DNA of 32,000 bases from Opitutales bacterium (GTDB lineage: Bacteria; Verrucomicrobiota; Verrucomicrobiia; Opitutales; PNEW01), in contig CBDCNV010000002.1 of the NCBI GenBank assembly GCA_965219535.1, positions 1,530,001 through 1,562,000 of the forward strand. Direction: 5' to 3'. The position numbers and the translations under genes were made by a program. The notes under the pieces are model-generated. The model did no database searches and had not been told where the DNA came from. It saw only the letters and a program-made list of their open reading frames with translations. Positions 596-25,365 of this stretch are shown here, piece by piece. Numbering within the stretch: the stretch's first letter is position 1; every line of letters starts with the position of its first letter.

Positions 596-629
596 GTCAA
601 AAGGTCAAAAGGTCAAAAAGTCAAAAAGG
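596..629 (+). repeat. K array: 4 tandem GTCAAAAG/GTCAAAAA units; start-proximal to the minus-strand gene 1..583 (reads CTTTTGAC in that gene's sense)
   Basis: Direct reading: gtcaaaag gtcaaaag gtcaaaaa gtcaaaaa gg. Lies 12 nt from the ATG at 583. Confidence 0.95.
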
Positions 630-695
630 AAAATGCGTTTATGAGTGAAAGCGTAGATGCGGATATGCGATTAAATAAAATTACATTGATTTAAA

Positions 696-728
696 CTTTT
701 TGACATTTTGACCTTTTGATATTTTGAC
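696..728 (-). repeat. K' array: 4 units CTTTTGAC-type, start-proximal to 753..1673
   Basis: ctttttgac attttgac cttttgat attttgac. Inverted partner of 596-629, with a 66-nt spacer. Ends 24 nt before the ATG at 753. Confidence 0.95.
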
Positions 729-752
729 TTAAACCCGCGAAAGCTGATTTTT

Positions 753-1673
753 ATGCCACGGATTAATAAAAGCATCGACTTGATGGAGCGGGGGGAGACG
801 GTCTATGTAACCTTAAAAATACCGGAGCTTAGCTATGACGCGGGCCGGGACCAGGCGCAGACCTGGGCAGATTTGATCGCAATCGATCTTGAGCACCTCG
901 CCTACGATATCATAGGCCTGACACAATTCATGCGCGGCCTTAAAGATGGCGGGCCTACGGCGAGCGGGCACCTGACACCGACGGTGCTCGTATCTCCCCC
1001 TGCGAATTGCACGAGTATTGAGGAGGTCATTTATAACGCATGGCAAGTCAGACAGATCCTATCGACGGGTGTTCACGGTATCTACTACCCGCAAGCGCGC
1101 GATGCCGAATCAGTGAGGGCCTACGTAACGACCACCCGTTACACTTTTCAGACGATTGGACGCGACCTTGGCCTGTCCGAGGGATTACGCGGCCACGGCG
1201 GTGAGAATCAAGCGTCAGAGATCTGGGGGATCAGTCCCGCCGAGTACCTGATGAAAGCAGACCCTTGGCCTCTGAATCCCGAGGGGGAGCTTTTACTGGG
1301 GCTGAAGATCGAAGACCGGCAAGGTATAGCTAATGCCGATGCAATCGCGAGCACGCCAGGACTCGCATTTGTTGCCGTGGGCGTGGCAGATCTTTCGATG
1401 TCTCTCGGCTATCAGTCTTTTCCCGGCTGGCCGTACCCGCCTGATTTACTAAATGGGCGGTTAGCTGCAAAATCAGCCTGTGAGAAGGCAGGCATTGCCT
1501 ATTTTACGGGATGGCCTGATTCCTCATTACCCCATGACGAACAATTGAAACATCTTTTCGAGGAAGGAAGTGACAAAATGTTATTGGCGCAGAACAGGGA
1601 GTTTGCCGAAGCAGGGAGGAATTTGTCAAAAAGTCAAAAGGTCAAAAAGTCAAAAAGGAAAATGCGTTTATGA
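753..1673 (+). CDS. HpcH/HpaI aldolase/citrate-lyase family protein
   Basis: 306-aa ORF. D-L-E-H metal/substrate motif (AIDLEHLAYD), IED and GxxDLS blocks, family-typical length. The last ~14 aa (KSQKVKKSKRKMRL) are translated from the K array. Confidence 0.75.
   Translation: MPRINKSIDLMERGETVYVTLKIPELSYDAGRDQAQTWADLIAIDLEHLAYDIIGLTQFMRGLKDGGPTASGHLTPTVLVSPPANCTSIEEVIYNAWQVRQILSTGVHGIYYPQARDAESVRAYVTTTRYTFQTIGRDLGLSEGLRGHGGENQASEIWGISPAEYLMKADPWPLNPEGELLLGLKIEDRQGIANADAIASTPGLAFVAVGVADLSMSLGYQSFPGWPYPPDLLNGRLAAKSACEKAGIAYFTGWPDSSLPHDEQLKHLFEEGSDKMLLAQNREFAEAGRNLSKSQKVKKSKRKMRL
1625..1658 (+). repeat. K array: 4 units, overlapping the 3' end of CDS 753..1673
   Basis: gtcaaaaa gtcaaaag gtcaaaaa gtcaaaaa gg. 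Lies inside the reading frame; the stop follows at 1671-1673. Confidence 0.95.
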
Positions 1674-1724
1674 GTGAAAGCGTAGATGCGGAAATGCGAT
1701 TAAATAAAATTACATTGATTTAAA

Positions 1725-1741
1725 CATTTTGACATTTTGAC
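1725..1741 (-). repeat. K' array: 2 units, start-proximal to 1766..2680
   Basis: cattttgac attttgac. Ends 24 nt before the ATG at 1766. The intergenic core 1659-1724 is near-identical to 630-695. Confidence 0.9.
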
Positions 1742-1765
1742 TTAAATCCGCGGAAGCGGGTTTTT

Positions 1766-2680: not shown

Positions 2681-2681
2681 A

Positions 2682-2710
2682 GTCAAAGGTCGAAAGTCGA
2701 AGGTCGAAAG
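2682..2710 (+). repeat. K-variant array (GTCAAAG GTCGAAA GTCGAAG GTCGAAAG), stop-proximal to 1766..2680
   Basis: Starts 1 nt after the TAG at 2678-2680. A short inverted partner, gacttcgacctttg, lies at 2811-2824. Confidence 0.85.
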
Positions 2711-2876
2711 TGGGGAGTATAAAAGGGTTCGGGGTGGAAGATGTCGAGCTACGCTCTCGGTACAGGGTTCAGGAAAATTACAATTGCAGATTGTGGATAG
2801 GAAGATGTTAGACTTCGACCTTTGTACGGATTGCGGATTTATACTAACGAAATAAACTATCTTTATTCTGAAGACT

Positions 2877-3990: not shown

Positions 3991-4006
3991 GTCAAAAAGT
4001 CAAAAG
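3991..4006 (+). repeat. K array: 2 units, start-proximal to minus-strand gene 2910..3983
   Basis: gtcaaaaa gtcaaaag, 7 nt from the ATG at 3983. Confidence 0.9.
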
Positions 4007-4048: not shown

Positions 4049-4158
4049 AGAGATAGCCACAAAAGGCACAAAAAGCACAAGATTAAATTTTGAGAGAAAA
4101 GAAGAACTATAAGGTGGAACGCGCTGTCCCCAGCGCGTTTGTTTATATTATTAAAAAA

Positions 4159-4893
4159 GGGTCATGCCTAGAACAGAGGGTATCTTAAGCACATATTAAG
4201 GATGTTACGATGGAGGTTTTGATGACGATGGTTAAAGCGATATTCAGTTTCTTTGAGGTGCAGTTGGAAGGTCCTACGAGAAAGACCTTTGAACTTAGCC
4301 AATCGAAGTTTAGCAAAAGCCCAAAAAGATTCAATCCCGTTAATGTGGGAGTGTCCCTGGGCAAACTCGTTGTCGTTGTGATTGACACGGTAATGCTTCT
4401 TATAGCCCAGATCCACGAGGCCGTTGTAAGCACGCCACCCGTCAGAATAAAGCACACTGTCAAAAGTAACTCTCCCTTGGATCACCGCATGCAGAGCGGC
4501 TCTGGAGACGTTGCGTACAACCTGGGTATAGACTTTCCCATTACGCTTGAGCAACCCGAAGACGGGCACTTTCTTGAATGCACCCCGACCTCTTTGCCCT
4601 GGAATTCTTTTGCCTCCAAAGTAGGACTCATCCATTTCCACCGACCCCCTAAAAGGCGAGGCCTGCGCACATTGCTGCAACAAACGCTCCCGCAACAAGC
4701 GCAAATAACGGTTGACCGTGTTACGATTCAATCCTGTCAATTGGGTTATCTTCAACGCTTCCATATCCAAGCTAAAACACTTTACTAACTGCCGAAATTT
4801 GGCCTCAGAAATTTTTGAACGATGTACATACTTATTTCTCATTTGTCTAGAATAGCTTACACATCTGATATGTGTCTATTCTAGGCATGACCC
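4159..4893 (-). mobile_element. IS1595-family insertion sequence (about 735 bp)
   Basis: Perfect 15-bp terminal inverted repeats GGGTCATGCCTAGAA (4159-4173 and reverse complement 4879-4893; 18/19 when extended). Single DDE transposase ORF. Flanking 8-mers TTAAAAAA (4151-4158) and TTAAAAAT (4894-4901) look like an 8-bp target duplication, which is expected for this family. Confidence 0.8.
4168..4842 (-). CDS. IS1595-family (ISXO2-like DDE) transposase
   Basis: 224 aa. N-terminal HTH-like region (LTGLNRNTVNRYLRLLR), ESYFGGKR, SDGWRAYNGL and INGIESFWAFAK blocks characteristic of DDE_Tnp_IS1595. Confidence 0.85.
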   Translation of the reverse strand: MRNKYVHRSKISEAKFRQLVKCFSLDMEALKITQLTGLNRNTVNRYLRLLRERLLQQCAQASPFRGSVEMDESYFGGKRIPGQRGRGAFKKVPVFGLLKRNGKVYTQVVRNVSRAALHAVIQGRVTFDSVLYSDGWRAYNGLVDLGYKKHYRVNHNDNEFAQGHSHINGIESFWAFAKLRLAKFKGLSRRTFQLHLKETEYRFNHRHQNLHRNILNMCLRYPLF

Positions 4894-4957
4894 TTAAAAA
4901 TATATACAAACGCGCTAGGGACAGCCCGCTCCACCTACCACGCATTAGCGTCTTCAA

Positions 4958-4990
4958 CGTTTTGACTTTTTGACCTTTTGACCTTTTGAC
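4958..4990 (-). repeat. K' array: 4 units, start-proximal to 4999..8289
   Basis: cgttttgac tttttgac cttttgac cttttgac. Ends 8 nt before the GTG at 4999. Confidence 0.95.
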
Positions 4991-4998: not shown

Positions 4999-7900
4999 GT
5001 GAAACGTGCTTTCAAATATTGTGGGCTTTTTCTGATAGCGAGTTGTTTCTATTTGGGGTTTTTATATTTGTGGAGTGATATCTTAATGCCGGAATTGGAG
5101 GAAGAACCCATCCACTACAGTCAGGAGAAGCTCGATTACACGGAAAAATTAAGAGATGTCAGTTTTACGGAGGATGATGAATATAAAGTACAGCGGGATG
5201 TAGATTATAGTAAGGGTGAATCCGGCAGATGGTTTCCCAAGGGTGAATCACCGATACTGGCTGAATTGGTAGAGGAGGGTAAGCTGCCACCGGTGGCTGA
5301 GCGCGTGGGACCCGAGCCGGTAGTAATTGAGGGTGTAGACGGTATTGGCAACTACGGTGGCACCTGGTTTCGGGTATCAGGATCGCAGACCAATATTGAC
5401 CTCATGTATAATTTCACTTCCGGCTCGATGCTCGTTCGCTGGTCCCCTCTCGGTTACCCAATCGTGCCGCATGCGGCTAAAGGATGGGAGTCCAGCCCAG
5501 ACTTAAAGGAATGGACCGTTTATTTACGCAAAGGGATGAAATGGTCCGACGGTCATCCCTTCACCGCTGACGATATTCTCTACTGGTACTACCAGGAAGT
5601 ATTGCTTGATTATTATCAGGATGCTGCAGCGCGGGCAAACTGGATGATCGTGGGTGGCGAGTGGGGAGAAATGGTCAAAATAGATGATTACACGATAAAA
5701 TTTGTTTTTCCTAAACCCTACGGTGTGTTTCTCGAACACCTGGCTCGTGCCTGGTATTTTTGTTCGCCTCGTCATTACATGGAGAAGTATCACCCGGATC
5801 TCGGCGACGACGAACTAATCGAAAAAACGATGGCAGCAAGGAGGTTACCATCGCGCAAAAGTTTATACGTATTACTAGAGAAGTGGTTCAACCCTGAGCA
5901 CCCGCGGATCTGGCCCTGGGTCTACCGTAATTACAAAGCCAATCCTCCCCAGGTATTTGTGCGCAATCCCTACTACTGGGCGGTTGATGTTGCAGGTAAC
6001 CAGCTGCCCTATTTAGACAGAATACATTGGGATATCAAAAATCAAAGGTTTGTTCCCATTGCATCCGCTAGCGGAGCAGTCACCTTTACCATTCATGTCA
6101 TGGATTTGTATTACACCCTGCTCATGGCAGAACGAGAAGCAGGAGAATACGAAGTCTATCACTGGTTTCCCGCAACACGCTCGCGCTATCTGATTAATCC
6201 GAACTTTAACTACTATGTCGATCCCGATAAACCGGAGACGCAAATGAAGCACGATCTCATCAATGACAAGCGCTTCCGCCAGGCACTTTCCCTCGCCATC
6301 AATCGACGACAAATAATCAAAAATGTGTATAATGGGGTGGGAGAGCCCGCGCAGTTATCGCCGGGCAGGGAATCTTACTTTCACCATGAAAAACTTCATA
6401 AGAGCTATACAGAGTATGCGCCTGACAAAGCAAATGCCTTACTCGATGAGCTCGGTCTCACCCGGAGGGATTCCGAAGGATACCGCAGGTTCAAGGACGG
6501 CACGCGCATGGTTTGGTATTATACCATTCCCCAGGGAGAAGACGAGGGACCGACGGAACTTATCCTAGAGGACTGGGGCCACGTGGGTGTACGTTTTATT
6601 CGACGACAGCCCTCACTTGCCCTTTTTAATTTAGAACTGAGAGCACGTACCTTGGAATTCTCCGATTGGCCTGGAGAGAGTGAATATAGTCCCATCTTGG
6701 GAGCTGACCGATTTGCCGGATTAACGTCTCTCCAAGCTTACGGTTATTGGAATTGGTATATGAGAGGGGGGCTTTACGGAGACCGAAGAGCCACCGAGTT
6801 AGGCGGCATCGAACCACCGATGAATCACCCTCTACGGCGATCAATGGAACTGATTGATGAATCTTACGGCGCAACCAACCGCGAAGAGCAGCGGGTCATT
6901 TTTAATAAGTTATTCGATATCGCAGCTGAAAATCTCTGGTCAATTAATATTACCACCCCTCCACCGCATCCGGTCGTCGTAAAGAACGGGTTAAAAAACG
7001 TACCCCGCAATTCATTTTATGGCGCGCGTTTTTGTCCACCGGCTCCGACCGGTATGGAAACCTACTTTTTCGAAGCGCCCTATGATTCACCGGGTGCGAT
7101 TGCCCAGATTAAAAATGAGATGATCGAAATCACCCCCGCCCCTTACGGCACCGAGGAAGACGATCTTGAATCCACCAGTTATGACCGTTTAGCCTGGCTT
7201 ATAAAAAACTTATTTTTAGGTATCGCCGTTTGCGGTATAATTATGATCGGGATACGACATCCGTATATTGGAAGACGAATGCTGATTATGATTCCGACGC
7301 TTCTCATTGTCTCGGTGATATCTTTTACGATCATCCAGCTGCCACCGGGAAGTTATATCGAAACAAGAATACTTGAGCTGCAGTTAAGAGGCGGGCCATT
7401 AGCTATCGATGAAGCGAAAGAACTGCGCGAAATTTTTCATCTCGATAAGCCCTTCCCCGAACGTTATTCCCGCTGGCTCGGGCTTAACTGGTTTACTTCA
7501 TTTGATCGAAAAGACCAGGGTTTACTCCAGGGCTACATGGGATTGTCGATGGAAAACCAGAGCACGGTCAATGAAATGGTGGGCGATCGCATCCTTCTCA
7601 CATTTCTCATATCATTAGGGACCATTCTTTTTACCTGGATGATAGCGCTGCCTATTGGCATCTATTCCGCGGTACGCCAGTACACCCTGGGCGACTATTT
7701 ATTCACCCTGATAGGATTCATTGGGATGAGCGTTCCCAGTTTTCTCCTCGCCTTGATCCTGCTTTACTGGAGCCGCGAGTACCTGGGGATAAACATTTCG
7801 GGGCTGTTTTCACCTGATTATGCGGCCCAGCCTGAATGGACGCGAGGTAAGATTCTCGACATGCTGAAACATATCTGGGTGCCGATAGTTGTTCTGGGGG

Positions 7901-8289
7901 TCACGGGGACGGCAAGTATGATCCGCATCATGCGCGGGAACTTACTTGACGAGTTAAAAAAACCCTACGTCATTACGGCGATGGCAAAAGGGGTGCGCCC
8001 CTTTAAACTGTTGATAAAATATCCCGTGCGTTTGGCGATTAATCCCTTTATCTCGGCGATTGGCGTGATCTTTCCTCAATTGGTTTCAGGCGGAGCGATT
8101 GTCGCCATGGTTCTCAGCCTGCCCACTGTTGGGCCGTTATTATTAGATTCGCTATTGCTTGAAGATATGTACGTAGCGGGGTCGATGCTCATGGTGCTCA
8201 GCTTGCTCGGAATACTAGGCACTTTGGTCAGTGATCTGTTACTTATGTGGCTCGATCCGAGGATTAGGATGGAAGGCGGAGTTCGGTAA
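4999..8289 (+). CDS. fusion protein: family-5 (peptide/oligosaccharide/nickel type) ABC solute-binding domain + DppB/OppB-like ABC permease domain
   Basis: 1096-aa ORF with GTG start. It has an N-terminal membrane anchor and a ~700-aa SBP_bac_5-like region. An extra TM helix (LAWLIKNLFLGIAVCGIIMIGI, ~7189-7255) follows, then a typical permease start (RRMLIMIPTLLIVSVISFTIIQLPPG) and the EAA-loop region (ITAMAKGVRPFKLLIKY). Confidence 0.8.
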   Translation: MKRAFKYCGLFLIASCFYLGFLYLWSDILMPELEEEPIHYSQEKLDYTEKLRDVSFTEDDEYKVQRDVDYSKGESGRWFPKGESPILAELVEEGKLPPVAERVGPEPVVIEGVDGIGNYGGTWFRVSGSQTNIDLMYNFTSGSMLVRWSPLGYPIVPHAAKGWESSPDLKEWTVYLRKGMKWSDGHPFTADDILYWYYQEVLLDYYQDAAARANWMIVGGEWGEMVKIDDYTIKFVFPKPYGVFLEHLARAWYFCSPRHYMEKYHPDLGDDELIEKTMAARRLPSRKSLYVLLEKWFNPEHPRIWPWVYRNYKANPPQVFVRNPYYWAVDVAGNQLPYLDRIHWDIKNQRFVPIASASGAVTFTIHVMDLYYTLLMAEREAGEYEVYHWFPATRSRYLINPNFNYYVDPDKPETQMKHDLINDKRFRQALSLAINRRQIIKNVYNGVGEPAQLSPGRESYFHHEKLHKSYTEYAPDKANALLDELGLTRRDSEGYRRFKDGTRMVWYYTIPQGEDEGPTELILEDWGHVGVRFIRRQPSLALFNLELRARTLEFSDWPGESEYSPILGADRFAGLTSLQAYGYWNWYMRGGLYGDRRATELGGIEPPMNHPLRRSMELIDESYGATNREEQRVIFNKLFDIAAENLWSINITTPPPHPVVVKNGLKNVPRNSFYGARFCPPAPTGMETYFFEAPYDSPGAIAQIKNEMIEITPAPYGTEEDDLESTSYDRLAWLIKNLFLGIAVCGIIMIGIRHPYIGRRMLIMIPTLLIVSVISFTIIQLPPGSYIETRILELQLRGGPLAIDEAKELREIFHLDKPFPERYSRWLGLNWFTSFDRKDQGLLQGYMGLSMENQSTVNEMVGDRILLTFLISLGTILFTWMIALPIGIYSAVRQYTLGDYLFTLIGFIGMSVPSFLLALILLYWSREYLGINISGLFSPDYAAQPEWTRGKILDMLKHIWVPIVVLGVTGTASMIRIMRGNLLDELKKPYVITAMAKGVRPFKLLIKYPVRLAINPFISAIGVIFPQLVSGGAIVAMVLSLPTVGPLLLDSLLLEDMYVAGSMLMVLSLLGILGTLVSDLLLMWLDPRIRMEGGVR

Positions 8290-8306: not shown

Positions 8307-8340
8307 GTCAAAAAGTCAAAAGGTCAAAAGGTCAAAAGGG
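8307..8340 (+). repeat. K array: 4 units, stop-proximal to 4999..8289
   Basis: gtcaaaaa gtcaaaag gtcaaaag gtcaaaag gg. Confidence 0.95.
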
Positions 8341-8409: not shown

Positions 8410-8446
8410 TTGTCATTGCGAGGAGCAACGCGACGCGGCAATCCAG
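8410..8446 (+). repeat. half copy of the TTGTCATTGCGA...GGCAATCCAG element
   Basis: ttgtcattgcgaggagcaacgcgacgcggcaatccag. The same sequence occurs at 10569-10605, and an inverted pair at 25157-25257. Confidence 0.8.
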
Positions 8447-8493
8447 AAAGTTTTAATACTAAATCCGAGAACGGTGAATCCCGAACCATCAAC

Positions 8494-8521: not shown

Positions 8522-8550
8522 ATCGCGTGAGGCGATTCGCCTCAAGCGAT
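8522..8550 (-). terminator. stem-loop overlapping the stop codon of 8542..9393; candidate intrinsic terminator
   Basis: atcgcgtgaggcg att cgcctcaagcgat: 13-bp stem with 1 mismatch. On the minus strand it contains ...ATC GCT TGA and is followed by a U-rich T-array transcript. Confidence 0.5.
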
Positions 8551-9393: not shown

Positions 9394-9405
9394 CTGCGAT
9401 GGATA

Positions 9406-9435
9406 GTCAAAATGTCAAAAGGTCAAAAAGTCAAG
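9406..9435 (+). repeat. K array: ~4 units, start-proximal to minus-strand gene 8542..9393
   Basis: gtcaaaat gtcaaaag gtcaaaaa gtcaag, 12 nt from the ATG at 9393. Confidence 0.95.
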
Positions 9436-9546
9436 AGCGCTAAAGCGCGTATACGCGAATATGCGATAATGCGGGTATGCGTAAATGCGGAGCATGTTCT
9501 GGAGTAAAGCGCTGGCGCGCGTTTTAGGTATTAGGTGACTTTTTAC

Positions 9547-9574
9547 TTAACACTTAACACCTAAAACTTAACAC
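9547..9574 (+). repeat. T array: 4 heptamers
   Basis: ttaacac ttaacac ctaaaac ttaacac. An inverted partial partner, gttttaggtattaggtg, lies at 9521-9537. Confidence 0.85.
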
Positions 9575-10446: not shown

Positions 10447-10455
10447 CGATGGATA

Positions 10456-11555: not shown

Positions 11556-11567
11556 CGAAGATGGATA

Positions 11568-17013: not shown

Positions 17014-17140
17014 ACAGTGAAAAATACCGGAAAGTCAGAAAACCAGAAAGCCAGACAATCGAAAACCGAAGTACCTAAAATCTGAATATTAAATTGAGAA
17101 TAAAAATGTCAAAATCCGCATTGCCGCTTTATCGCATTTC

Positions 17141-17158
17141 CCTTTTTGATATTTTGAC
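17141..17158 (-). repeat. K' array: 2 units, start-proximal to 17177..18244, preceded by reverse-oriented M units
   Basis: cctttttgat attttgac. Upstream, tccgcattgccgctttatcgcatttcc is the reverse complement of M-type units. Confidence 0.85.
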
Positions 17159-17176
17159 TAAAAACAGGTTTTTAAA

Positions 17177-18244
17177 ATGGCTAATACTGACAAAGTAAGT
17201 AATACCATTTCCTGGTATCGAATACCGCTGAAGGGGGAATCTTTGAGGGGGCTGAGTCAGCGCAGTGATTGGAAAGGATTACTCCAGGCGTGCGGTCATT
17301 TAGGATTGCTTGTCTTAACTGGCGCAGCAGCCTTTTATGCAAATGGTCGGTTTCCGCTACCCATGCTGTTGTTAATAATATTTCTGCATGGGACCTTTTA
17401 CAAATTTATCCTGAATGGCTTTCACGAACTCTGCCACAGCTCAGTATTTAAGACCAAAGCTCTGAATAATTTCTTTCTGCATGTATTCAGTTTTCTCGGG
17501 TGGTATAGTCCCGTTATGTTTTGGACGAGTCACAGTGAGCATCACAAATATACCTTACATCAACCGGACGATCTCGAAGTGGTGATGCCGATCAAGTATA
17601 CACTCATGGCTTTTCTTAAATCCGCGTTTGTAAACCCGATACAGTTTTTTATCTCACTGGAAACGAACATCCGCTTCAGTTTCGGTAAAATAAGTAAGAA
17701 AGATATGCCAGGTGAATGGGAGGTGGATGATCTATTCCCTCCATCGGAGGTTGAAAATAGGAGACGCTTGTTTAATTGGGCTCGCACTCTACTCGTAGGT
17801 CATGGGCTCATCATCGGCATCTCTATTTATACCGGCCTCTGGTTATTGCCTGTCTTGATAACCTTTGGACGATTTTATGGCGGGTGGCTCCTGTTTTTCT
17901 GCAACAACTGTCAGCATGTTGGGTTGCAGGATAAAGTTCCTGATTTTCGTCTCTGCTGCTGGACGGTGATTCTAAACCCATTCGTACAGTTTCTCTACTG
18001 GCATATGAATTATCACATCGAACACCATATGTACGCCGCGGTTCCGTGTTACAATCTCGGTAGACTGCATAGGGCGATTGAGTATGACCTACCGGAAAGC
18101 CCAAATGGATTGTATGCCGTTTGGAATAAAATTGCGGAGACTCTGAAAAAACAAAAGGCAGACCCTGATTACCATTACGTCCCTGAATTACCGGAAATCC
18201 AGTTCCGAGTTCCGCAGTCGCGGAACGACATCTTCCAAGCCTGA
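17177..18244 (+). CDS. membrane fatty acid desaturase family protein
   Basis: 355 aa. Three histidine boxes (HELCH, HSEHHKY, HIEHHMY) and several hydrophobic segments. Confidence 0.8.
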   Translation: MANTDKVSNTISWYRIPLKGESLRGLSQRSDWKGLLQACGHLGLLVLTGAAAFYANGRFPLPMLLLIIFLHGTFYKFILNGFHELCHSSVFKTKALNNFFLHVFSFLGWYSPVMFWTSHSEHHKYTLHQPDDLEVVMPIKYTLMAFLKSAFVNPIQFFISLETNIRFSFGKISKKDMPGEWEVDDLFPPSEVENRRRLFNWARTLLVGHGLIIGISIYTGLWLLPVLITFGRFYGGWLLFFCNNCQHVGLQDKVPDFRLCCWTVILNPFVQFLYWHMNYHIEHHMYAAVPCYNLGRLHRAIEYDLPESPNGLYAVWNKIAETLKKQKADPDYHYVPELPEIQFRVPQSRNDIFQA

Positions 18245-18295
18245 CAATCGGAGAGCCGGAAAGCCGGATAGTGGTATATCCAGAAGACTAGACAA

Positions 18296-18844
18296 TTGAA
18301 AGGGGACCTCACAGGGATCAGTAAGTTTCTCAGCCTTGTGCTTCGGCACAAACCGGAAGCGATTGGTTTATCGCTCGACGAATTTGGCTGGGTGAAAATC
18401 GATGAGCTGTTGGCGTGTTCGGAACGGAATGGACGTGTTATTTCTCGAGAGCAACTGAATGAAGTAGTAATCAGTAACGATAAGCAGCGATTTGCAATTA
18501 GTGAGGACCTCACTCGTATCCGAGCAAGTCAGGGTCATTCGATCCCCGTCAATCTTGGGCTCAAACCCTTACAACCACCGGACGTTCTCTATCACGGCAC
18601 TACCCAACGTTTTCTCAGCTCCATTCTTGACAAAGGGCTTCTTAAACGAAAACGAGAATACGTTCACCTGTCGCCCGACTCTGCAACGGCAAGCAAGGTT
18701 GGGTCACGTCATGGCTCGCCGGTCATTCTCCGGATTCGGGCAGGTGATATGCACGAACAAGGTGCGGAGTTTTATCGCTCAGAAAACGGTGTATGGCTCA
18801 CGGAGATCGTACCCCATGGTTACATCGAGCACAATGGGGAATAA
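18296..18844 (+). CDS. kptA: RNA 2'-phosphotransferase (Tpt1/KptA family)
   Basis: 182 aa. ISKFLSLVLRHKPEAIGLSLDEFGWVKIDELL and YHGT...VHLS blocks match KptA. The TTG start is uncertain. Confidence 0.8.
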   Translation: MKGDLTGISKFLSLVLRHKPEAIGLSLDEFGWVKIDELLACSERNGRVISREQLNEVVISNDKQRFAISEDLTRIRASQGHSIPVNLGLKPLQPPDVLYHGTTQRFLSSILDKGLLKRKREYVHLSPDSATASKVGSRHGSPVILRIRAGDMHEQGAEFYRSENGVWLTEIVPHGYIEHNGE

Positions 18845-18868
18845 TATGTTAAGAGCGAGTAATGATCC

Positions 18869-19414
18869 ATGTCCCTGGTAACACAATACCAGTCCTCCTG
18901 GCCCAATGATTTTGTTAAGATTCGAAATTATCTCGAAACGGGAATCACTTACTATCATTCGATAGAACATACCGGGAGCACCTCGGTACCGGGTATGGTA
19001 GCTAAACCGATTATTGATATTATCATTGTCGTTCAACCTGGAAAGATGAGCGACATGATTGAAGAACTCTCACGATTAGGCTATAGTCATCAAGGGAACT
19101 TAGGAATTCCAGGAAGAGAGGCTTTCGATTATCTACCCGCTCATCTTCAACTTCCGACCCATCATCTCTATACCTGTTACCCCGATGCTAATCAATTATT
19201 AGGACACGTTGCGTTTCGCCTATTCATGCGGGAGAGTCTCGAATGGAGAGAAAAACTCTCAGCATTAAAACTTGAATGTGATAGGAAATTTGATTCCAAC
19301 CGTCAGCAATACATGGATGGGAAAAGAGAAATGGTTGAACATATTATCAAACTTGCTCGAGAAAAACATCCGAATCCCAAAATTCCGTCAAGACCGATTC
19401 AACATTCTGGATGA
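18869..19414 (+). CDS. GrpB family (UPF0157) protein
   Basis: 181 aa. IEHTGSTSVPGMVAKPIIDIIIVV block typical of GrpB. Lies 24 nt downstream of kptA. Confidence 0.75.
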   Translation: MSLVTQYQSSWPNDFVKIRNYLETGITYYHSIEHTGSTSVPGMVAKPIIDIIIVVQPGKMSDMIEELSRLGYSHQGNLGIPGREAFDYLPAHLQLPTHHLYTCYPDANQLLGHVAFRLFMRESLEWREKLSALKLECDRKFDSNRQQYMDGKREMVEHIIKLAREKHPNPKIPSRPIQHSG

Positions 19415-19569
19415 TTATAAACCGGGTTCACCTATATTATTTAACACTTAGATATTATGGAATCATGACTCGACTTTTTGCGGTGTTACAGAAAACTATA
19501 CCGTAAACATCTTTCGCGGTACACTATCAGATCTTCTGGCCCGCATCTCAGCTGAAATGTTGTAGAGAA

Positions 19570-20559
19570 ATGAATAAAATACTGCATATTACGAATGGGG
19601 GACACGCTAAGGAAAAGCTGGAGGGCTCCGGGTTTGATGGAGAATTTTTACCTTGGGATGATATCCTTCACGATGGTCCAGTCCCTGAAGGGCTCACGCT
19701 GAGGAAATTATCAAAAGCACGGGCCGAGTACATCTCCAGTCTTGGTTATGATTCTTTTTCCAAGATCCATGAAATTTTTCAAAAAAGAGATGGAATTATA
19801 GAATCTTTGTCAGATTACAGCGAGATTACATTATGGTTTGAACCAGACCTCTATGATCAATTACAGTTATTACAAATTTTGGATTCGATAGGAAACTTAT
19901 CGAGTAAACTGGACAATATATATTTGATCCATTTTTCATCCGTGACAGGTATCGATTACGATGACCTTAATCATCTTTATGAAAATCGACTTACGATAAG
20001 TGAGGAAACTGTCGCGTGCGCACAAAAAGGTTGGGACGCTTACAGATCTCCTTCGCCGGAATCGATGAGTGAATTATTAAATCTTAAGGTTTTACAATTT
20101 CCTTACCTGGGGAGAGCTTTCCAGCGTTTGTTTGAAGAATATCCCGATTACCGAAATGGTTTATCGAGGACGATGCATCAGTTTCTTCAGATCATAAAAG
20201 ATGATCAGAGTAGAGGGCCATTCGATATTTTTCTCGAGAATCAAAAACTCGAAGATTACGCATTCCTGGGAAATCATACCTTCTTTACACAAGTCGAGAG
20301 TATAGCCAATTGCCAAAGGGCTTTGGTTAAGCTAAAGGATGGATCAAAATTTAATCATTCCTTAACGGATATAAAGTACTCGGAGGAGTTTCTCAAAAAT
20401 AGATTCAAGATCACAGAAGATGGAGTAGATGTATTAAACTTTAATGCAGATTTCATAAAATTAAATGGGATCGATCGTCATATAGGGGGTGTCCATCTGA
20501 CAAGCGACAATGACTGGAGATGGGATGGAGATGATGAACAGTTCAGGAGGAAGAGTTAA
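19570..20559 (+). CDS. DUF1835 domain-containing protein
   Basis: 329 aa. N-terminal LHITNGGHA...LPWDDILHDGPVP pattern. Confidence 0.6.
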   Translation: MNKILHITNGGHAKEKLEGSGFDGEFLPWDDILHDGPVPEGLTLRKLSKARAEYISSLGYDSFSKIHEIFQKRDGIIESLSDYSEITLWFEPDLYDQLQLLQILDSIGNLSSKLDNIYLIHFSSVTGIDYDDLNHLYENRLTISEETVACAQKGWDAYRSPSPESMSELLNLKVLQFPYLGRAFQRLFEEYPDYRNGLSRTMHQFLQIIKDDQSRGPFDIFLENQKLEDYAFLGNHTFFTQVESIANCQRALVKLKDGSKFNHSLTDIKYSEEFLKNRFKITEDGVDVLNFNADFIKLNGIDRHIGGVHLTSDNDWRWDGDDEQFRRKS

Positions 20560-20732
20560 TAAAGTTATGCGTAAATGTGATAAAGCGTAGATGCGTGGAT
20601 GTGATAAGGCGATTAAGAATTAGGTTAAAGGTTGAAGGAAATATAATTGTTGTTCTGCACGATCACATGGATCGTAGAGATGGACTGACTAAAATTATAT
20701 AGGCGCGATAAGCGCTGAGATAGGAATAGAAG

Positions 20733-22190
20733 ATGAAAAATACAAAATTAGAGAGAACACAGATATCTATAATCCAATCGCTTCGGGTACGTCTTTTATT
20801 ACTCGTAATTATGTTTGTCCTGACAGCGACGATTCTATTGGAAATCTATACCTTACGTCAATTTGAGAAGGTAACGACTATTGCCATCGAGCATGAGGGC
20901 AATTTGTTGTCTGATTTACTTGAAGCGAGTATTTCTCCCTATCTCGAGACGCGGGACATTGAAGGGATGCAGGCGAATCTTGATCGCATTGCTGCGACTC
21001 GTGAAAAGAACGACATTGAAATGAATATAATGTTGTTAGAAGGTGACGGTTCGGCGACGGTTGCGAGTAATGTTCCCAGTAACATTGAAGGAGCAGATCC
21101 TGAAGAACACGAAGAGCTATTAAAATCATTGGCATTCAATCAGCCCGTAGTTTTTATCGAAAGTCCTGAAACAGGTGAAGATCCGGATGAAGAATTTATC
21201 GACGAATCCCATCCTGATTTTTATATTTCGAGCGAGAAACGAATAATAAGTATAACGACTCCATTAGCCATTAATGAGCGCCAGTAAGGGAGCATCAATG
21301 TCGCATCCTCATTGGGCGCACTAGATGATGTTTTGGAACATTCCCGTTCTATAATCCTGGTCGCAGCTTCGATGGAGGTATTGATCGTCATGATTGGCCT
21401 GGGTTTTATATTTAATTACACGATATTTAAACCGCTGCGACAATTGACGAGTAATATGCATCATGTTGCTGCAGGTGATCTGAGCAGAGAGTTGGAATCA
21501 TCCAGCCGGGATGATGAGATTGGACTTATGTCCAGGGCATTCAATAGTATGGCCCAACAGCTTCTCCGCGCTCGCAATCAACTCCATCAGTATCTTAACC
21601 CCATGGCGATTGAAGAAGCTTATCGACGCGCCGGTACAGAAAGCACTGAATCGCTAGCGGAAGAAAGGGAAATTTCTGTATTATTTGTTGATATCGTTTC
21701 CTTTACGACGACATCTAAACGTCTCGGACCAACGCTTACCGTCGCCTATCTGAATCGGTTCTATGATCTGATATCTTCGGCGCTCATCGACTCAGGCGGG
21801 TATATAGATAAATTCGTGGCTGATGAAGCGGTTTGTATTTTTGATGGTGTCAGTCACGCTGAGAATGCTGTGACCGCAGCGCGAAATATTCTCCGCCGCT
21901 TGAATGAAGACTCACAGAGCGACCCTGTTCAGGTCCGTATTGGGATTAATACGGGAAAATGTATCATCGCTGATATCGGTAGTCAGGAGATTGGAAGATT
22001 AGACCGAACAATCATCGGGGACACGGTAAATGTGGCGCAACGCCTGATGAGCGCGACTCAACCCAACACCGCGCTCTTATCTGAATTTTCATTCGCCTCT
22101 TACCCTCAGCACGAATCAGATATTTCTCCTTTCGGAGAGCAGCAATTAAAGGGGAAGACGAGTGCCGTGATGACTTATCGGCTTCAGTAA
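20733..22190 (+). pseudogene. membrane sensor-HAMP-class III adenylate/guanylate cyclase interrupted by one in-frame TAA (21285-21287)
   Basis: Track ORFs 20733..21287 and 21312..22190 are in the same frame. Reading through gives ...PLAINERQ*GSINVASSLGALDDVLE..., then TM2, HAMP (AAGDLSRELE...SRAFNSMAQQL) and the cyclase domain (VLFVDIVSFTT..., GINTGKCIIADIGS, IGDTVNVAQRL). Confidence 0.75.
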
Positions 22191-22194
22191 TTTG

Positions 22195-22218
22195 GTCAAA
22201 AGGTCAAAAAGTCAAAAG
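22195..22218 (+). repeat. K array: 3 units, stop-proximal to 20733..22190
   Basis: gtcaaaag gtcaaaaa gtcaaaag. Starts 4 nt after the TAA. Confidence 0.95.
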
Positions 22219-22311
22219 GAGGGAGGATTGTGGATTGCTTAATGGGGAGATGCCATTCGTTGCACGGAGCAATGGACGACCATCCTTCGCTTACATTAAA
22301 TAACGCATTTA

Positions 22312-22344
22312 CTTTTTGACCTTTTGACCTTTTGACTTTTTGAC
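22312..22344 (-). repeat. K' array: 4 units, start-proximal to 22355..23101
   Basis: ctttttgac cttttgac cttttgac tttttgac. Ends 10 nt before the ATG at 22355. Confidence 0.95.
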
Positions 22345-22354
22345 TTATTCCTGG

Positions 22355-23101
22355 ATGAGCAAAGTAATTATTGTAACAGGTAGTAGTCGCGGCATTGGTG
22401 CGGCGACAGCGCGTCTTGCAGGAGAAAAGGGCTATGCGGTATGCGTAAATTATTTTAAAAACCCAGAAGCTGCTGAGAAAGTTGTCAGTGCGATTAAAGA
22501 TAGCGACGGACAGGCGATTGCAGTAGCAGGTGACATGAGTTTAGAGAGCGATGTGGATCGTCTATTCACTACGGTGGATTAGGAGTTAGGAACGGTAAAC
22601 GCGCTGGTAAACAATGCGGGGATAATAGCTCTACAGTCGAGAGTCCAGGATCTGGACGTTACCAGAATGCAAAGAATATTCGCGGTGAATATTATGGGAT
22701 ATTTCCTCTGCGCGCGGGAGGCGATTAAACGGATGTCGACAAAAATGGGGGGTGTCGGAGGAGCGATTGTCAATGTATCGTCAGCGGCCGCCCGACTGGG
22801 ATCACCGGGTGAATTTGTCGACTATGCTGCATCGAAAGGCGCCATTGATACGATGACAATAGGACTGGCGAGAGAAATTGCCGATGAAGGCATACGTGTA
22901 AACGCCGTGCGGCCCGGTCTAATCGATACTGAGATGCACGCTGCTGCGGGAGATCCGGATCGGGCAGAGAAATTGAAAGATTTTGTTCCCATGAAAAGAG
23001 TGGGGACCGGTGAGGATATAGCTAAAGCGGTCTTATGGTTGCTTTCTGAAGGCGCATCCTATTCGTCCGGAACGATTATCGATGTATCGGGGGGGCGCTA
23101 A
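22355..23101 (+). pseudogene. SDR family oxidoreductase interrupted by one in-frame TAG (22580-22582)
   Basis: Track ORFs 22340..22582 and 22667..23101 share a frame. Read-through gives TGSSRGIG...LFTTVD*ELGTVNALVNNAGII...SSAAARLG...YAASKGAIDT. The NNAG motif lies in the gap between the two track ORFs. The true start is probably the ATG at 22355 (MSKVIIVTG). Confidence 0.8.
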
Positions 23102-23103
23102 GA

Positions 23104-23127
23104 GTCAAAAAGTCAAAAGGTCAAAAA
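23104..23127 (+). repeat. K array: 3 units, stop-proximal to 22355..23101
   Basis: gtcaaaaa gtcaaaag gtcaaaaa. Starts 2 nt after the TAA. Confidence 0.95.
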
Positions 23128-23154
23128 GGGGGGAAACTAACGTAGATCTGCATT

Positions 23155-23187
23155 CTTTTTGACTTTTTGACCTTTTGACATTTTGAC
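23155..23187 (-). repeat. K' array: 4 units, start-proximal to 23214..24314
   Basis: ctttttgac tttttgac cttttgac attttgac. Only 27 nt separate it from the K array at 23104-23127, so the two form a compact ~24-bp-stem hairpin. Confidence 0.95.
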
Positions 23188-23213
23188 TAAAAACCTGCCT
23201 AGCAGGTTTTTAT

Positions 23214-24314
23214 ATGGAAGAGCTAGTAAAAGTTGGAATAATTGGGTGTGGTAAGATCAGTGATACTTATCTGAAGACGTTCAAAATATTTCCCAATATA
23301 GAGATCGTTGCCTGCGCTGACATCGCGCCAGAGGTGGCGAATAAGAAGGCGGAGGAATATGGAATCGAAGCCCTGTCGGTGGATGATTTACTGAAAGAGA
23401 GTGCTATTGAAATCGTTCTTAACCTCACCATCCCAAAAGCTCACGCCGAAGTGAATCTTCAGGCACTCCACGCGGGTAAGCATGTCCACTGTGAAAAGCC
23501 GTTCGCGCTTACGCGAAAAGAGGGGATGCCTGTTATCACCCTGGCGCAAGAGAAAGGGCTAATGGTGGGTTGCGCGCCAGACACCTTCCTGGGTGGCGGT
23601 CATCAAACCTGCCGCAAGATGATAGACGATGGCTGCATAGGAAAAGCAGTCTCGGGAACGGCTTTCATGTTGAGCCATGGTCCTGAACATTGGCATCCGA
23701 ATGTGGGCTTCTATTATGAGAAAGGAGGAGGACCGTTATTCGATATGGGTCCTTACTATATTACGGCACTCGTTAACCTCCTGGGTCCTGTCAATCGTGT
23801 GTGCTCATTTTCAGGTAAAGCATTTGAAGATCGAATCGCCACTTCTAAGGAACTAATGGGCAAGGTGATTCCCGTTGAGACGCCAACCCATGTTGCAGGA
23901 ACACTTGAATTTTCAAGTGGTGCCCTGGTTACGATAATAATGAGTTTTGATGTTTGGTATCACAGTACCCCACCTATTGAAATTCATGGAGAGAAATGCA
24001 GCCTGAAAGTTCCCGATCCGAATGGATTCAAAGGTCCGGTTTTCATCAATAAGGAAGGGGAAAGAGAATGGGAGTCGGTTCCCCTCTCTCATGGTTACAT
24101 CGACCCAATGCGTGTCATTGGTGTTGCAGATATGGCCAAAGCGATAAGAGGAAACAGGAAAAACCGCTGTAGCGGTGAACTGGCTTATCATGTCCTCGAT
24201 GTAATGGAGTCACTCCTTGAATCCGCTGAAAAAGGGAAATTCATTGAACTTGAAAGCACAACTGAGCGACCAGATCCACTGCCTCTCGGACTTAAAGAGG
24301 GTGAACTGGATTGA
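23214..24314 (+). CDS. Gfo/Idh/MocA family oxidoreductase
   Basis: 366 aa. N-terminal Rossmann VGIIGCGKIS and the EKP motif (HVHCEKPFA). Confidence 0.85.
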   Translation: MEELVKVGIIGCGKISDTYLKTFKIFPNIEIVACADIAPEVANKKAEEYGIEALSVDDLLKESAIEIVLNLTIPKAHAEVNLQALHAGKHVHCEKPFALTRKEGMPVITLAQEKGLMVGCAPDTFLGGGHQTCRKMIDDGCIGKAVSGTAFMLSHGPEHWHPNVGFYYEKGGGPLFDMGPYYITALVNLLGPVNRVCSFSGKAFEDRIATSKELMGKVIPVETPTHVAGTLEFSSGALVTIIMSFDVWYHSTPPIEIHGEKCSLKVPDPNGFKGPVFINKEGEREWESVPLSHGYIDPMRVIGVADMAKAIRGNRKNRCSGELAYHVLDVMESLLESAEKGKFIELESTTERPDPLPLGLKEGELD

Positions 24315-24348
24315 ACAATAAAATTAAAAATGGAGTGAGAGGAATAAA

Positions 24349-25005
24349 ATGTCGAAGAAAGCTTTAATATCCTGGGGTGGTTGGGAAGGTCATGAACCGA
24401 AAGAAAATGCTGAGCTGTTTGAGCCCTTATTAAAAACAGATGGCTATGAGGTCGAAGTGACCAACTCACTGGATACTTACAAAGATGTTGAGAAAATGAA
24501 ATCATTCGATCTAGTGGTTCCGATATGGACGATGAGTGATATGACCGCGGAGCAGGAAAAGGGATTATTGGAGGCAGTCCACTCTGGGGTAGGCATTGCC
24601 GGATGGCATGGCGGCATGGGTGATTCAATGCGCAATAATCCTCATTTCCAATGGATGGTTGGTGGCCAGTTTGTTGCTCATCCCGGTGGTATTTTCGACT
24701 ACGAGGTAAATATAGTGAAGCATGAGGATCCTATTGTCGCAGGTTTAAAGGATTTCAATATGCATTCAGAACAGTATTACCTGCATGTTGACCCAGGGAA
24801 TGAAGTGCTGGCGACGACGATTATCCCCGGTGATCCCGGTGATGCTCCTTGGGTGAAGGGCACGCTAATGCCGGTGGTGTGGAAACGAATGTACGGCAAG
24901 GGCAAAGTGTTTTATTCCTCACTCGGTCATGTGACGAGCGATTTTGATGTCCCTGAAGTCAGGGAATTAACACGTCGTGGATTGTTATGGGCGACGAGAG
25001 AATGA
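24349..25005 (+). CDS. ThuA domain-containing protein
   Basis: 218 aa. [26 protein letters not shown] blocks. SD-like gagaggaa upstream. Probably co-transcribed with 23214..24314. Confidence 0.8.
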
Positions 25006-25037
25006 GTCAAAAAGTCAAAAGGTCAAAAAGTCAAAAC
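25006..25037 (+). repeat. K array: 4 units, starting immediately after the TGA of 24349..25005
   Basis: gtcaaaaa gtcaaaag gtcaaaaa gtcaaaac. Confidence 0.95.
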
Positions 25038-25156
25038 GTTGTAATGTGGGAGACTCGTGAAAAGTGGGTGATGCGTAAAAGCGGTAGTATAGAAACTGTT
25101 AAGTATTTCTTGTAAACTATATCATGTATTTTGCATTCTGAATCATACATTCTCTC

Positions 25157-25257
25157 TTGTCATTGCGAAGGAGGCGTAGCCGACTACGGCAATCCAGGGG
25201 GTTGACATTACGTTTCCAACATTCCCCTGGATTGCCGCGCTACGCTCGCAATGACAA
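25157..25257. repeat. 101-bp palindromic element made of two inverted TTGTCATTGCGA...GGCAATCCAGGGG copies
   Basis: The left arm, 25157-25200, is ttgtcattgcgaaggaggcgtagccgactacggcaatccagggg. The right arm, 25224-25257, is its reverse complement minus about 10 internal nt. The loop is ttgacattacgtttccaacatt. ORF 25157..25348 is an artefact of this element. Confidence 0.85.
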
Positions 25258-25331
25258 TGGTGATCAAAATACGCGACCCCCAATGTATGCTCCGCTTATA
25301 CTCATAATCGCATTAACGCGTAAACGCATTT

Positions 25332-25365
25332 CCTTTTTGACTTTTTGACCTTTTGACATTTTGAC
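25332..25365 (-). repeat. K' array: 4 units, start-proximal to 25373..25591
   Basis: cctttttgac tttttgac cttttgac attttgac. Ends 7 nt before the ATG at 25373. Confidence 0.95.

Follow-up and report, generated by a model that had tools for sequence, protein, structure and literature searches.

Among described repeats, two systems are nearest in kind to the element reported here. The short tandemly repeated repetitive (STRR) sequences of heterocystous cyanobacteria, reportedly described by Mazel et al. in 1990, comprise several very short (7-nt) tandem families that are confined to spacers, lineage-specific and abundant. The repetitive extragenic palindromes and bacterial interspersed mosaic elements (REP/BIME) of enterobacteria and pseudomonads are high-copy extragenic repeats with roles in mRNA stability and termination, which often occur as inverted pairs that fold in mRNA and form mosaics with other short motifs. 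The element in question is a family of octamer arrays in a 32,000-nt stretch of Opitutales (Verrucomicrobiota) DNA of sponge-metagenome origin, hereafter the window. Each array contains tandem copies of the unit GTCAAAAG (the GTCAAAAR family; CTTTTGAC on the opposite strand) and abuts the start or the stop of a gene. What is new relative to both systems is the two-sided boundary polarity, the fixed spacing to the start codon, the ceiling of four units and the recurrence in other phyla of the Planctomycetes-Verrucomicrobia-Chlamydiae (PVC) bacteria. In contrast to STRR, the arrays are 8-nt (their sister families have a period of 7), contain no more than four units, lie flush with the ends of coding sequences (CDSs), are strictly polar and often form inverted pairs; their hosts are Verrucomicrobiota and Planctomycetota, not cyanobacteria, and the resemblance is in kind only. 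The REP/BIME unit is a 20–40-nt imperfect palindrome with a GTAG/CGTC head, mobilized by a REP-associated tyrosine transposase (RAYT), whereas the GTCAAAAR unit is not self-complementary, is tandem and is also found directly upstream of starts; only opposed arrays can pair. The REP/BIME assignment was rejected because the unit is not a self-folding palindrome. The GTAG/CGTC head is absent from the unit, and no Y1 transposase (RAYT) occurs in the Pfam tables of the window and the fetched loci (whole genomes were not searched).

Two further systems share features with the arrays. Integron attC sites are imperfect inverted repeats around a highly variable centre; they occupy the spacer from a stop to the next start and often overlap the stop codon. 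The arrays differ in that they are ordered GTCAAAAG...CTTTTGAC, the reverse of RYYYAAC...GTTRRRY, their arms are tandem and solo arms are common; attC was rejected on the reversed core order, the presence of genes on both strands and the lack of an integrase domain in the Pfam tables. The DNA uptake sequences of Neisseria and the uptake signal sequences of Haemophilus are single 9–12-mers, linked to competence, with inverted pairs in terminators. They resemble the arrays as short over-represented oligomers with frequent inverted pairs just past genes, but they are neither tandem nor located upstream of start codons. A scan of the whole window against Rfam gave no match at E<=1, and tRNA and tmRNA genes were not found in it. 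Literature searches on the dimer, the unit, octa- and heptanucleotide intergenic repeats in PVC bacteria and STRR returned no description of the octamer arrays in the library searched, with a synthetic Nur77 response element as the sole match to the dimer. In line with the initial annotation of the window, which did not recognize a described class, the octamer arrays are apparently a gene-boundary signal not previously described.

The dimer GTCAAAAGGTCAAAAG, with up to two mismatches allowed, occurs 51 times in the window, compared with 0.03 occurrences expected from dinucleotide shuffles. Chaining of units at a period of 8 yields 21 canonical arrays with 73 units, where about 0 are expected by chance, and only five exact GTCAAAA 7-mers lie outside arrays. 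All of the arrays are intergenic or located at the extreme 3´ end of an open reading frame (ORF). The initial annotation counted 22 arrays, of which 21 are canonical; the 22nd, given at 2682, has a variant 7-nt unit and reads (AGTCGAA/AGTCAAAG)n over 2681–2711, and two further variant arrays were not listed. Its orientation rule, that the arrays follow the neighbouring gene without exception, stands for every array in the window: in each case, the distance from a CDS end to the 5´ end of the GTCAAAAR reading is −5 to +26 nt, and the opposite end faces a spacer of 50–330 nt.

The polarity was determined in 222 kb of non-redundant DNA from at least five related genomes: the window, the metagenome-assembled genome (MAG) OY829953 and three more array-bearing genomes reached via homologues of the ABC protein. 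An array was scored as abutting when its end lay within 30 nt of a CDS end, and as solo when an inverted partner was absent within 450 nt. Among all 80 arrays, the outer end (5´ in the GTCAAAAR reading) abuts a CDS end in 65 and the inner end in 0 (p=5e-20); the 15/80 non-abutting arrays are mostly artefacts of ORF calling, which was crude in this set. Paired arrays meet the orientation rule automatically, because an inverted pair reads alike on both strands. For the 48 solo arrays, the outer end abuts a CDS end in 39 and the inner end in 0 (p=4e-12), which rules out that the polarity is a by-product of hairpin symmetry. The orientation rule therefore applies to each array individually, with its gene as the reference.

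The unit consists of an invariant 7-nt core and a free 8th base, which is A or G and also T, mainly at starts. The counts of T at this position (4/57 vs 19/103, p=0.06) make an avoidance of AUG in stop-side arrays only suggestive, and the 8th-base order A-G-A recurs between loci. The 80 arrays contain two units in 17 cases, three in 16 and four in 47, with a maximum of four in this set; one 5-unit array was seen, in L131 (L numbers denote fetched loci). Spelled as RNA, 4-unit arrays read (CUUUUGAC)4 and (GUCAAAAG)4. The outer flank, (T)A-GTCAAAA, is alike at starts and stops. The inner flanks are class-specific, with ATGCG-type 8-mers after start arrays and GGGGGGAG/GGAGGAG(CGCT) or GTTG after stop arrays. 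On the sense strand, the start side reads ...TTTTGAC-TA-N5-7-ATG/GTG, with the unit read as (NUUUUGAC)n, and the arrays end at −8 relative to the ATG or GTG. Gaps to the start codon reach down to a sharp limit of 7 nt (11 cases), and 22/43 measure 7–9 nt; wider gaps contain small hairpins. The range of 7–26 nt given in the initial annotation is confirmed except for the array at 596, whose gap is ambiguous (2 or 12 nt). In 19/28 cases, stop-side arrays start −1 to +5 nt from the stop, and in the window they start within the annotated −1 to +17 nt; the TA-G junction is often itself the TAG stop. The frame property noted earlier also holds directly from the sequence, as the CTTTTGAC reading gives TGA in all three frames and the GTCAAAAG reading is stop-free.

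The GTCAAAAR arrays dominate a larger group of polar 7–8-nt tandem repeats, which the initial annotation overlooked, as it did the all-or-none distribution among close relatives and the recurrence in other PVC phyla. Tandem Repeats Finder detected AGTCGAA, CAGTGAA, GTTAAGT/GTTAGGT, GGGTTCA, ATGCGNNN and CCGGAAAG as other 7–8-nt spacer repeats. The other families account for 39 repeats within 30 nt of a CDS end, 34 at stops and 5 at starts, and 32/34 of those at stops contain more G than C in the gene sense (p=7e-8). GTCAAAAR-family arrays abut 40 starts and 25 stops in the 222 kb. As starts are capped nearly only by this family, the start-side arrays are singled out as a sequence-specific element; the stop caps look generic in character. 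Two long repeats of the window lie beside this set, namely (AGTGAAC)x19.6 at 27475–27613, which runs from the stop of the PhyH gene 26703–27479, and (GCGGAAAT)x11.4 at 11625–11715, just inside the start array at 11568.

The MAG OY829953.1 ('Opitutales bacterium', Verrucomicrobiota), used for comparison, is 92–97% identical to the window over two 8-kb blocks. The comparison of orthologous loci proposed in the initial annotation was run and shows unit-number polymorphism: 4 in the window vs 3 in OY829953 at one array and 2 vs 3 at another, with 2–4 units between strains. One right arm and entire spacers are replaced between these two genomes. In L117 (88–93% amino acid identity), start arrays with perfect 7-nt cores are kept at the ABC, PhyH, HpcH and desaturase genes, and the remaining spacer is unalignable; at the stops of the ABC, 251-aa and EVE genes, GTTAAGT or AGTCGAA arrays take the place of the octamer arrays, or the latter are missing. 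The ABC homologue of L121 (62% amino acid identity) has four units, an 8-nt gap and a GTG start, and the L121 PhyH genes occur in inverted block order with the arrays still attached to them. GTG and ATG alternate at one site across four genomes at the array-led ABC gene, which indicates that the array-adjacent start codon is real. That GTG is used repeatedly speaks against a leaderless mRNA, and the array would therefore fall within the untranslated region (UTR) at the 5´ end.

Outside these relatives, a scan of one genome per species found three or more tandem units in many Phycisphaerae, other Planctomycetes and Bacteroidales MAGs. With GC3-filtered ORFs, the outer and inner ends abut CDS ends in 12 and 0 cases in Phycisphaerae, 8 and 0 in other Planctomycetes, and 11 and 4 in Bacteroidota. 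Phycisphaerae and other Planctomycetes carry a GTCAAAAR-type unit with the same polarity as in the window (20:0). Phycisphaerae have up to 13 units of GTCAAAAC/GTCGAAAC right behind stops, and other phyla reach 13–14 units. In Bacteroidales sediment MAGs, TTTTGAC arrays lie 10–45 nt ahead of starts; at four unrelated loci of these MAGs (L093 ~960, L022 ~3200, L080 ~3050 and L079 ~3180), a conserved motif, CACACAGGAGGATGATTATTG, is located just 5´ of TTTTGAC/TTTCGAC arrays. Planctomycetes and Bacteroidetes are phyla with few Shine-Dalgarno (SD) genes and with U-rich or S1/leaderless-type signals (PMC5397173).

For about 45% of the arrays, the same spacer contains a complementary partner. As annotated earlier, these pairs can form 24–33 bp stems, here predicted around interiors of 28–296 nt with z-scores of −5 to −9; across 16 paired elements, the interiors show no sequence relatedness. 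Set against the double-stranded RNA of at least about 20 bp that characterizes RNase III substrates, the paired arrays would provide sufficient length if both arms are co-transcribed, and about 55% of the arrays are unpaired. A canonical terminator reading was rejected on arm composition and length, loop size and the terminator scan, which did not call the arrays: the arms are 62% A+T and 24–33 bp long with loops of 28–296 nt, unlike an intrinsic terminator with a short G+C-rich stem, a 3–8-nt loop and a U-run. Processing or insulator hairpins, as proposed in the initial annotation, are physically possible for the partnered arrays but cannot account for solo arrays of identical polarity. Genes bracketed by inverted arrays, also noted there, are indeed seen, but they are expected from two independent boundary rules at high density. 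A start array heads the same co-directional run in 14/18 stop arrays, and 42% of all genes have a start array; the bracketing of transcription units does not exceed this density and gives no support for 5´–3´ pairing. An SD motif is present at 1/26 array-led genes vs 15/93 others. The lack of SD motifs beside arrays noted in the initial annotation is weak evidence, because SD motifs are rare in this organism generally.

The arrays are most likely a gene-linked polar cis-element in untranslated mRNA ends and not a mobile hairpin. The analysis establishes their position, polarity, spacing, conservation, pairing potential and phyletic pattern, and we infer that they are transcribed, contact the ribosome or S1 and affect expression. 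As a tentative mechanism (probability about 0.3), the start array would be a transcribed U-rich leader that replaces the SD, with a complementary 3´ trailer able to pair with it. The start side, (N-UUUUGAC)2-4, UA, 5–7 nt and AUG/GUG, would constitute the leader of SD-less genes. In the sense strand, the block is U/pyrimidine-rich and its unit cannot pair with itself, which agrees with S1-type, SD-independent initiation regions upstream of SD-less genes. This 16–32-nt block would remain single-stranded, end at −8, where an SD helix would otherwise be placed, and recruit 30S subunits by S1-type contacts; it would also supply a UGA in each of the three frames just ahead of the start. On the stop side, the complementary (GUCAAAAR)n would lie in the 3´ trailer as one among many G>C tandem-repeat caps past stops in the lineage. 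When both arrays occupy one intergenic region, the read-through RNA could fold into the 24–33 bp stem, which may hide the downstream leader or be a target of termination or RNase III-type cleavage, and would insulate the neighbours either way. The origin of the arrays may lie in single TTTTGAC motifs that were amplified in a lineage with a tendency to form 7–8-nt tandem repeats. The U- and AU-rich S1-binding enhancers and ribosome standby sites (Boni 1991; Komarova 2005; de Smit & van Duin 2003; summarised in PMC5397173) are similarly unstructured, pyrimidine-rich stretches 5´ of initiation regions with a weak or absent SD. The known cases are single, non-repetitive, gene-specific and lack a complementary copy past stops, in contrast to a conserved 8-nt unit repeated two to four times at hundreds of genes. 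Among the functions proposed in the initial annotation, a U-rich SD-independent leader fits the start-side arrays best, in view of their end at −8 with the 7-nt minimum gap, the near absence of other repeat families at starts and their retention at orthologous starts across species, but its strict version, a standby site for a closed ribosome-binding site, is unsupported. Also in favour of the leader are the 65:0 polarity (39:0 for solo arrays), the array-adjacent start codon shared across genomes, the scarcity of SD motifs, the single TTTTGAC units kept by the outgroup L132, the occurrence of the unit in phyla with low SD usage and the predicted pairing of partnered arrays.

Several observations weigh against this leader mechanism. 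L132, a fully syntenic relative (82–88% amino acid identity, GC 40%), has neither the arrays nor comparable short tandem repeats; it carries only single TTTTGAC units, 5/9 of them intergenic, including those upstream of HpcH and SDR. The same gene families are present without arrays in L134, L120, L123 and Coraliomargarita algicola. Because these five genomes lack arrays, the trait is all-or-none per genome and dispensable for these genes; array-positive are the window lineage, OY829953 and the source genomes of L117, L118 and L121. Only ~42% of genes have a start array, the arrays are missing from the sole stretch of housekeeping DNA sampled (L121 1–9800), and the unit number varies between strains. 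Structure around the start is not greater for array-led genes than for other genes (p=0.41). No matching of the 8th base was evident on pattern inspection, either between paired arms or across the gene, with about half matching as base frequencies predict. At some stops a canonical terminator precedes the array (L056 4824), and the trailer may stay untranscribed. The polarity of solo stop-side arrays is also unexplained by the leader. The probability is set at this level because relatives manage without arrays, array-led starts are not more structured and the solo stop-array polarity is left unexplained.

A function-free, satellite-like repeat analogous to STRR is a strong rival, only a little less probable than the leader. 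Lineage-specific slippage or gene conversion would fill spacers and keep the repeats homogeneous, and selection would set only their place, adjoining coding and initiation regions but outside them, and the tolerated orientation. The co-occurrence of many repeat families, the all-or-none presence among close relatives, the replacement of entire spacers between strains 93–97% identical, the exchange of stop arrays for other families at orthologous sites and the unit-number polymorphism are consistent with such an origin. The recurrent inversion of an interior, the absence from the only housekeeping stretch sampled and a ~111-nt array-bearing segment with an 8-nt direct repeat, which rewrites the last two EVE codons, point the same way. 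However, no known neutral process yields a 65:0 polarity at starts and stops, solo arrays included, and the hard ceiling with a pile-up at four units (47/80) is unlike slippage. The recurrent A-G-A order between loci, the perfect cores of start arrays amid unalignable neighbouring DNA and the use of essentially one family at starts also argue against it. The invariance of the 7-nt core, beside an 8th base that is free, is compatible with a sequence-specific binding factor, as the initial annotation suggested, and two versions can be considered. The more novel of these would make the arrays a gene-boundary code, in which a trans factor (protein or RNA) binds the core on single-stranded nucleic acid with no more than four protomers per array; this proposal is doubtful. 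The factor would be shared by PVC bacteria, be gained and lost together with the arrays, and set initiation on SD-less leaders, and the complementary trailers would couple or insulate neighbours in cis or act globally in trans as 3´-UTR-derived anti-leader RNAs. If true, it would be a genome-wide post-transcriptional system without a described counterpart. Alternatively, a protein may bind the core in duplex DNA, with one protomer on each 8 bp and at most four in all, to mark or insulate gene boundaries or to co-regulate accessory genes, which we regard as unlikely. The fixed maximum of four units (32 bp, ~3 helical turns), the identical outer flank at starts and stops, a polarity set by the gene body and not by the direction of transcription, and an all-or-none distribution that fits gain or loss of a trans factor agree with DNA binding. 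Nevertheless, units spaced at 8 bp do not keep phase with the helix, which is unusual for cooperative duplex binders, other phyla reach 13–14 units, and no candidate protein was found among the window genes.

The remaining explanations are less probable still. TTGAC is the universal −35 core, and TTGACN units could serve as −35 boxes of promoters for short-leader or leaderless mRNAs: four units and a 7-nt gap put the first TTGACN at −36 to −31 and the last TTGACT at −12 to −7 from the start codon, which matches the sigma-70 spacing (18 nt) and the −10-to-+1 distance (6 nt), and operator-like palindromes lie on several start codons. TTGACT nevertheless lacks the near-invariant −11 A of the −10 element, a sigma-70 promoter scan showed no enrichment over shuffles, about half of the gaps are 9–38 nt, array-led genes use GTG starts, and stop-side arrays would drive antisense RNA; promoter arrays are therefore quite improbable. 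Promoters of the ECF-sigma or sigma-54 type, boxA mimicry, a Rho rut site and a TRAP/HutP-type attenuator were dropped on sequence or geometry alone. Invertible promoters (invertons) are said to have been described by Jiang et al. in 2019 in Bacteroides and other gut bacteria. Like invertons, the paired arrays place a shared inverted repeat around short intergenic segments genome-wide, as global invertases do in Bacteroides, and could switch the two flanking genes. The 69-nt interior 628–696 upstream of HpcH is flipped between the window and OY829953/L117, which requires at least two inversion events. This reading is very improbable, as the flip is confined to one of about three comparable loci, ~55% of the arrays are partnerless and no recombinase gene is found nearby in the Pfam tables; moreover, short inverted repeats flip spontaneously over evolutionary time, as in chloroplast hairpin loops, which counts against it. 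The MITE-like (miniature inverted-repeat transposable element) family proposed in the initial annotation, a foldback-type mobile element with terminal inverted repeats made of tandem 8-mers, fails on the shared interior and has the least to recommend it. Inverted arms with variable centres are reminiscent of Drosophila foldback elements, an A...T arm extension is common and one insertion-like polymorphism has an 8-nt direct repeat. Yet the interiors are unrelated among copies, the outer flanks vary (TA, GA, TG, CC...) with left-right mismatch and no consistent target duplication, an empty site without both arms was never seen, arrays remain with genes as interiors change, and solo arrays are the majority. 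The only direct repeat flanking an array segment is the single 8-nt one around one solo array. An IS630/mariner-type TA target duplication was rejected on inconsistent flanks. The 8-mers were also considered as 8-bp target-duplication footprints of IS1595, but the target of this insertion sequence (IS) is TTAAAAAN and the polarity would be left unexplained.

Returning to the U-rich leader with its complementary trailer, a conserved octamer ending at −8 in about 40% of one lineage's genes would be a testable candidate signal, given the question of start-codon choice in SD-poor Bacteroidota, Planctomycetota, Verrucomicrobiota and cyanobacteria. The two-ended polarity, which does not depend on gene direction, is without a known molecular reader, and its explanation would reveal either a new cis-regulatory grammar or an orientation-selective genesis of repeats. 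In practice, the arrays flag the true start codons and the ends of transcription units in PVC metagenome bins that are unannotated, and gene callers should mask or model them.

The arrays of the window are distributed as follows, with the strand in parentheses. At the left edge, a 4-unit array at 596–627 (+) lies on the start side of a minus-strand gene (start codon 583 or 593) and forms the left arm that pairs with the 4-unit array at 697–728 (−), the start-side array of the HpcH-aldolase gene 753–1673, which is followed by a 24-nt gap with a small GNRA-type hairpin and a T-run. The 69-nt interior between them, 628–696, is reversed in OY829953 (L021/L131) and in L117. Within it, 21 nt at 676–696 (TAAAATTACATTGATTTAAAC) match the 5´ ends of phage-type ssb genes in seven unrelated metagenome contigs (L124–L130), a match that is judged to be chance. 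Four units at 1625–1656 (+) fall within the last codons of ORF 753–1673, on the stop side at the junction of a tandem gene duplication, and two units at 1726–1741 (−) precede the second HpcH gene, 1766–2680, where the OY829953 ortholog has three. The variant array at 2681–2711 (+) lies immediately past stop 2680 and corresponds to four canonical units at the orthologous site of OY829953. Two units at 3991–4006 (+) lead a minus-strand Ala_racemase_N/D-ser_dehydrat gene with the ATG at 7 nt. The SBP_bac_5/BPD_transp_1 fusion gene 4999–8289 (the ABC gene) has four units at 4959–4990 (−) ahead of its GTG at 4999 (8-nt gap), conserved in L047, L117 and L121 with GTG or ATG at the same site, and four units at 8307–8338 (+), 17 nt past its stop and behind a hairpin; the latter array has three units in OY829953, where its inverted partner is present, and this partner is replaced in the window.

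Three minus-strand PhyH genes, 8542–9393, 9595–10446 and 10701–11555, are each led by a 4-unit array, at 9406–9437 (+; last unit degenerate), 10456–10487 (+) and 11568–11599 (+; last unit degenerate, then (GCGGAAAT)x11). The 251-aa gene 11807–12562 has two exact and two degenerate units at 11764–11797 (−) before its start, where the L131 ortholog has four exact units, and three units at 12568–12591 (+) after its stop, followed by GGGGGGAGGAGG. The EVE-domain gene is led by four units at 12674–12705 (−; ATG 12713, 7-nt gap), and a 4-unit array at 13189–13220 (+) overlaps its TAG stop. The latter belongs to a ~111-nt segment that is missing from L117, is bounded by the 8-nt direct repeat GATGGGGG at 13174 and 13285, and rewrites the last two EVE codons. 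Two units at 17143–17158 (−) precede the fatty-acid desaturase gene at 17177, with four in the L117 ortholog. Three units at 22195–22218 (+) follow the gene 21312–22190. The SDR gene has four units at 22313–22344 (−) before its ATG (22355) and three at 23104–23127 (+) after its stop (23101), and the GFO/IDH/MocA gene at 23214 is led by four units at 23156–23187 (−), with a 26-nt gap that contains a hairpin and then a T-run. Four units at 25006–25037 (+) begin one base past the stop of the ThuA gene (25005), and four at 25334–25365 (−) lead a 72-aa ORF (ATG 25373, 7-nt gap). The two unlisted variant arrays are of the form NTTNGAC and are degenerate: ATTCGAC TATCGAC CTTTGAC TTTAGAC at 28741–28766 (−), on the start side of the GNAT gene 28776, and CTTTAGAC CTTTGAC ATTCGAC at 29357–29382 (−), on the start side of the gene 29392.

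Several structures occur beside the start arrays. Start codons lie inside short perfect palindromes, TATCCATCG(n)ATGGATA with variable loops, at the three PhyH genes (9394–9405, 10447–10455 and 11556–11567) and TGACCAC-ATGA-GTGGTCA at EVE (12706–12723), with further array-adjacent cases at L095 2337 and L121 21006; such palindromes may serve as operators or form hairpins at the start codon. Small G+C hairpins with GNRA-type loops and A-run/T-run flanks are located between array and ATG at HpcH (729–752 and 1742–1765), GFO (23188–23213) and the desaturase (17159–17176). They are shaped like bidirectional terminators, with one compensatory pair among five homologues.

Other elements share the spacers. 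A separate dispersed palindromic repeat, TGTCATTGCGAGGAG...GCGGCAATCCAG, is found at 8411–8447, 10570–10606 and 25158–25256, the last as a full inverted pair, and also in L117 spacers. Terminator-like hairpin repeats of the GGTGGAGCGGGCTGTCCCTAGCGCG and GGAGGGACGCGCTCCGTCGCGTCC types lie at 4113–4137, 4911–4935 and 30255–30278 and in many spacers of array-bearing genomes (L056, L104, L112 and L117), and a module, GAGCGCTGAYGCGCG, that adjoins arrays is recurrent in such genomes. An IS1595-family IS (ISXO2-like DDE) at 4159–4893 carries the terminal inverted repeat GGGTCATGCC... and is flanked by a target duplication of 8 bp, TTAAAAAA/TTAAAAAT. Its insertion point is the A+T-rich loop of a palindromic spacer element, and the orthologous site of OY829953 lacks the IS.

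The gene content of the window is accessory metabolism: HpcH aldolases, PhyH dioxygenases, the peptide-ABC fusion, BNR sialidase-like proteins, EVE, desaturase, SDR, GFO/ThuA and one IS1595 copy. Tandem paralogues (753–2680, 8542–11555 and 13372–17013) differ in copy number among the window, L117, L131 and L132, with 1–2 HpcH, 2–4 PhyH and 2–3 BNR genes, which is consistent with unequal recombination between flanking repeats; the arrays appear to promote tandem gene amplification and small inversions. The ENA sponge-metagenome contig ERZ25067264 ctg827606 (106 kb) contains the same genes and matches base for base along the shared stretch, barring one 358-nt insertion polymorphism. In the same-sample contig L115 (18062–18317, against window ~20774), the additional 358 nt comprise an HTH_29 ORF fragment and a duplicated beginning of the gene 20733. 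Every gene in 12000–32000 is on the + strand, with a strong positive GC skew (0.1–0.3) and an AT skew that is also positive; the G>C polarity of the stop-side repeats continues this coding-strand skew, and the start-side arrays run opposite. The SDR gene 22355–23101 is interrupted by a stop near 22580 (ORFs 22340–22582 and 22667–23101), which reflects either a pseudogene or an error of the 5x-coverage assembly.

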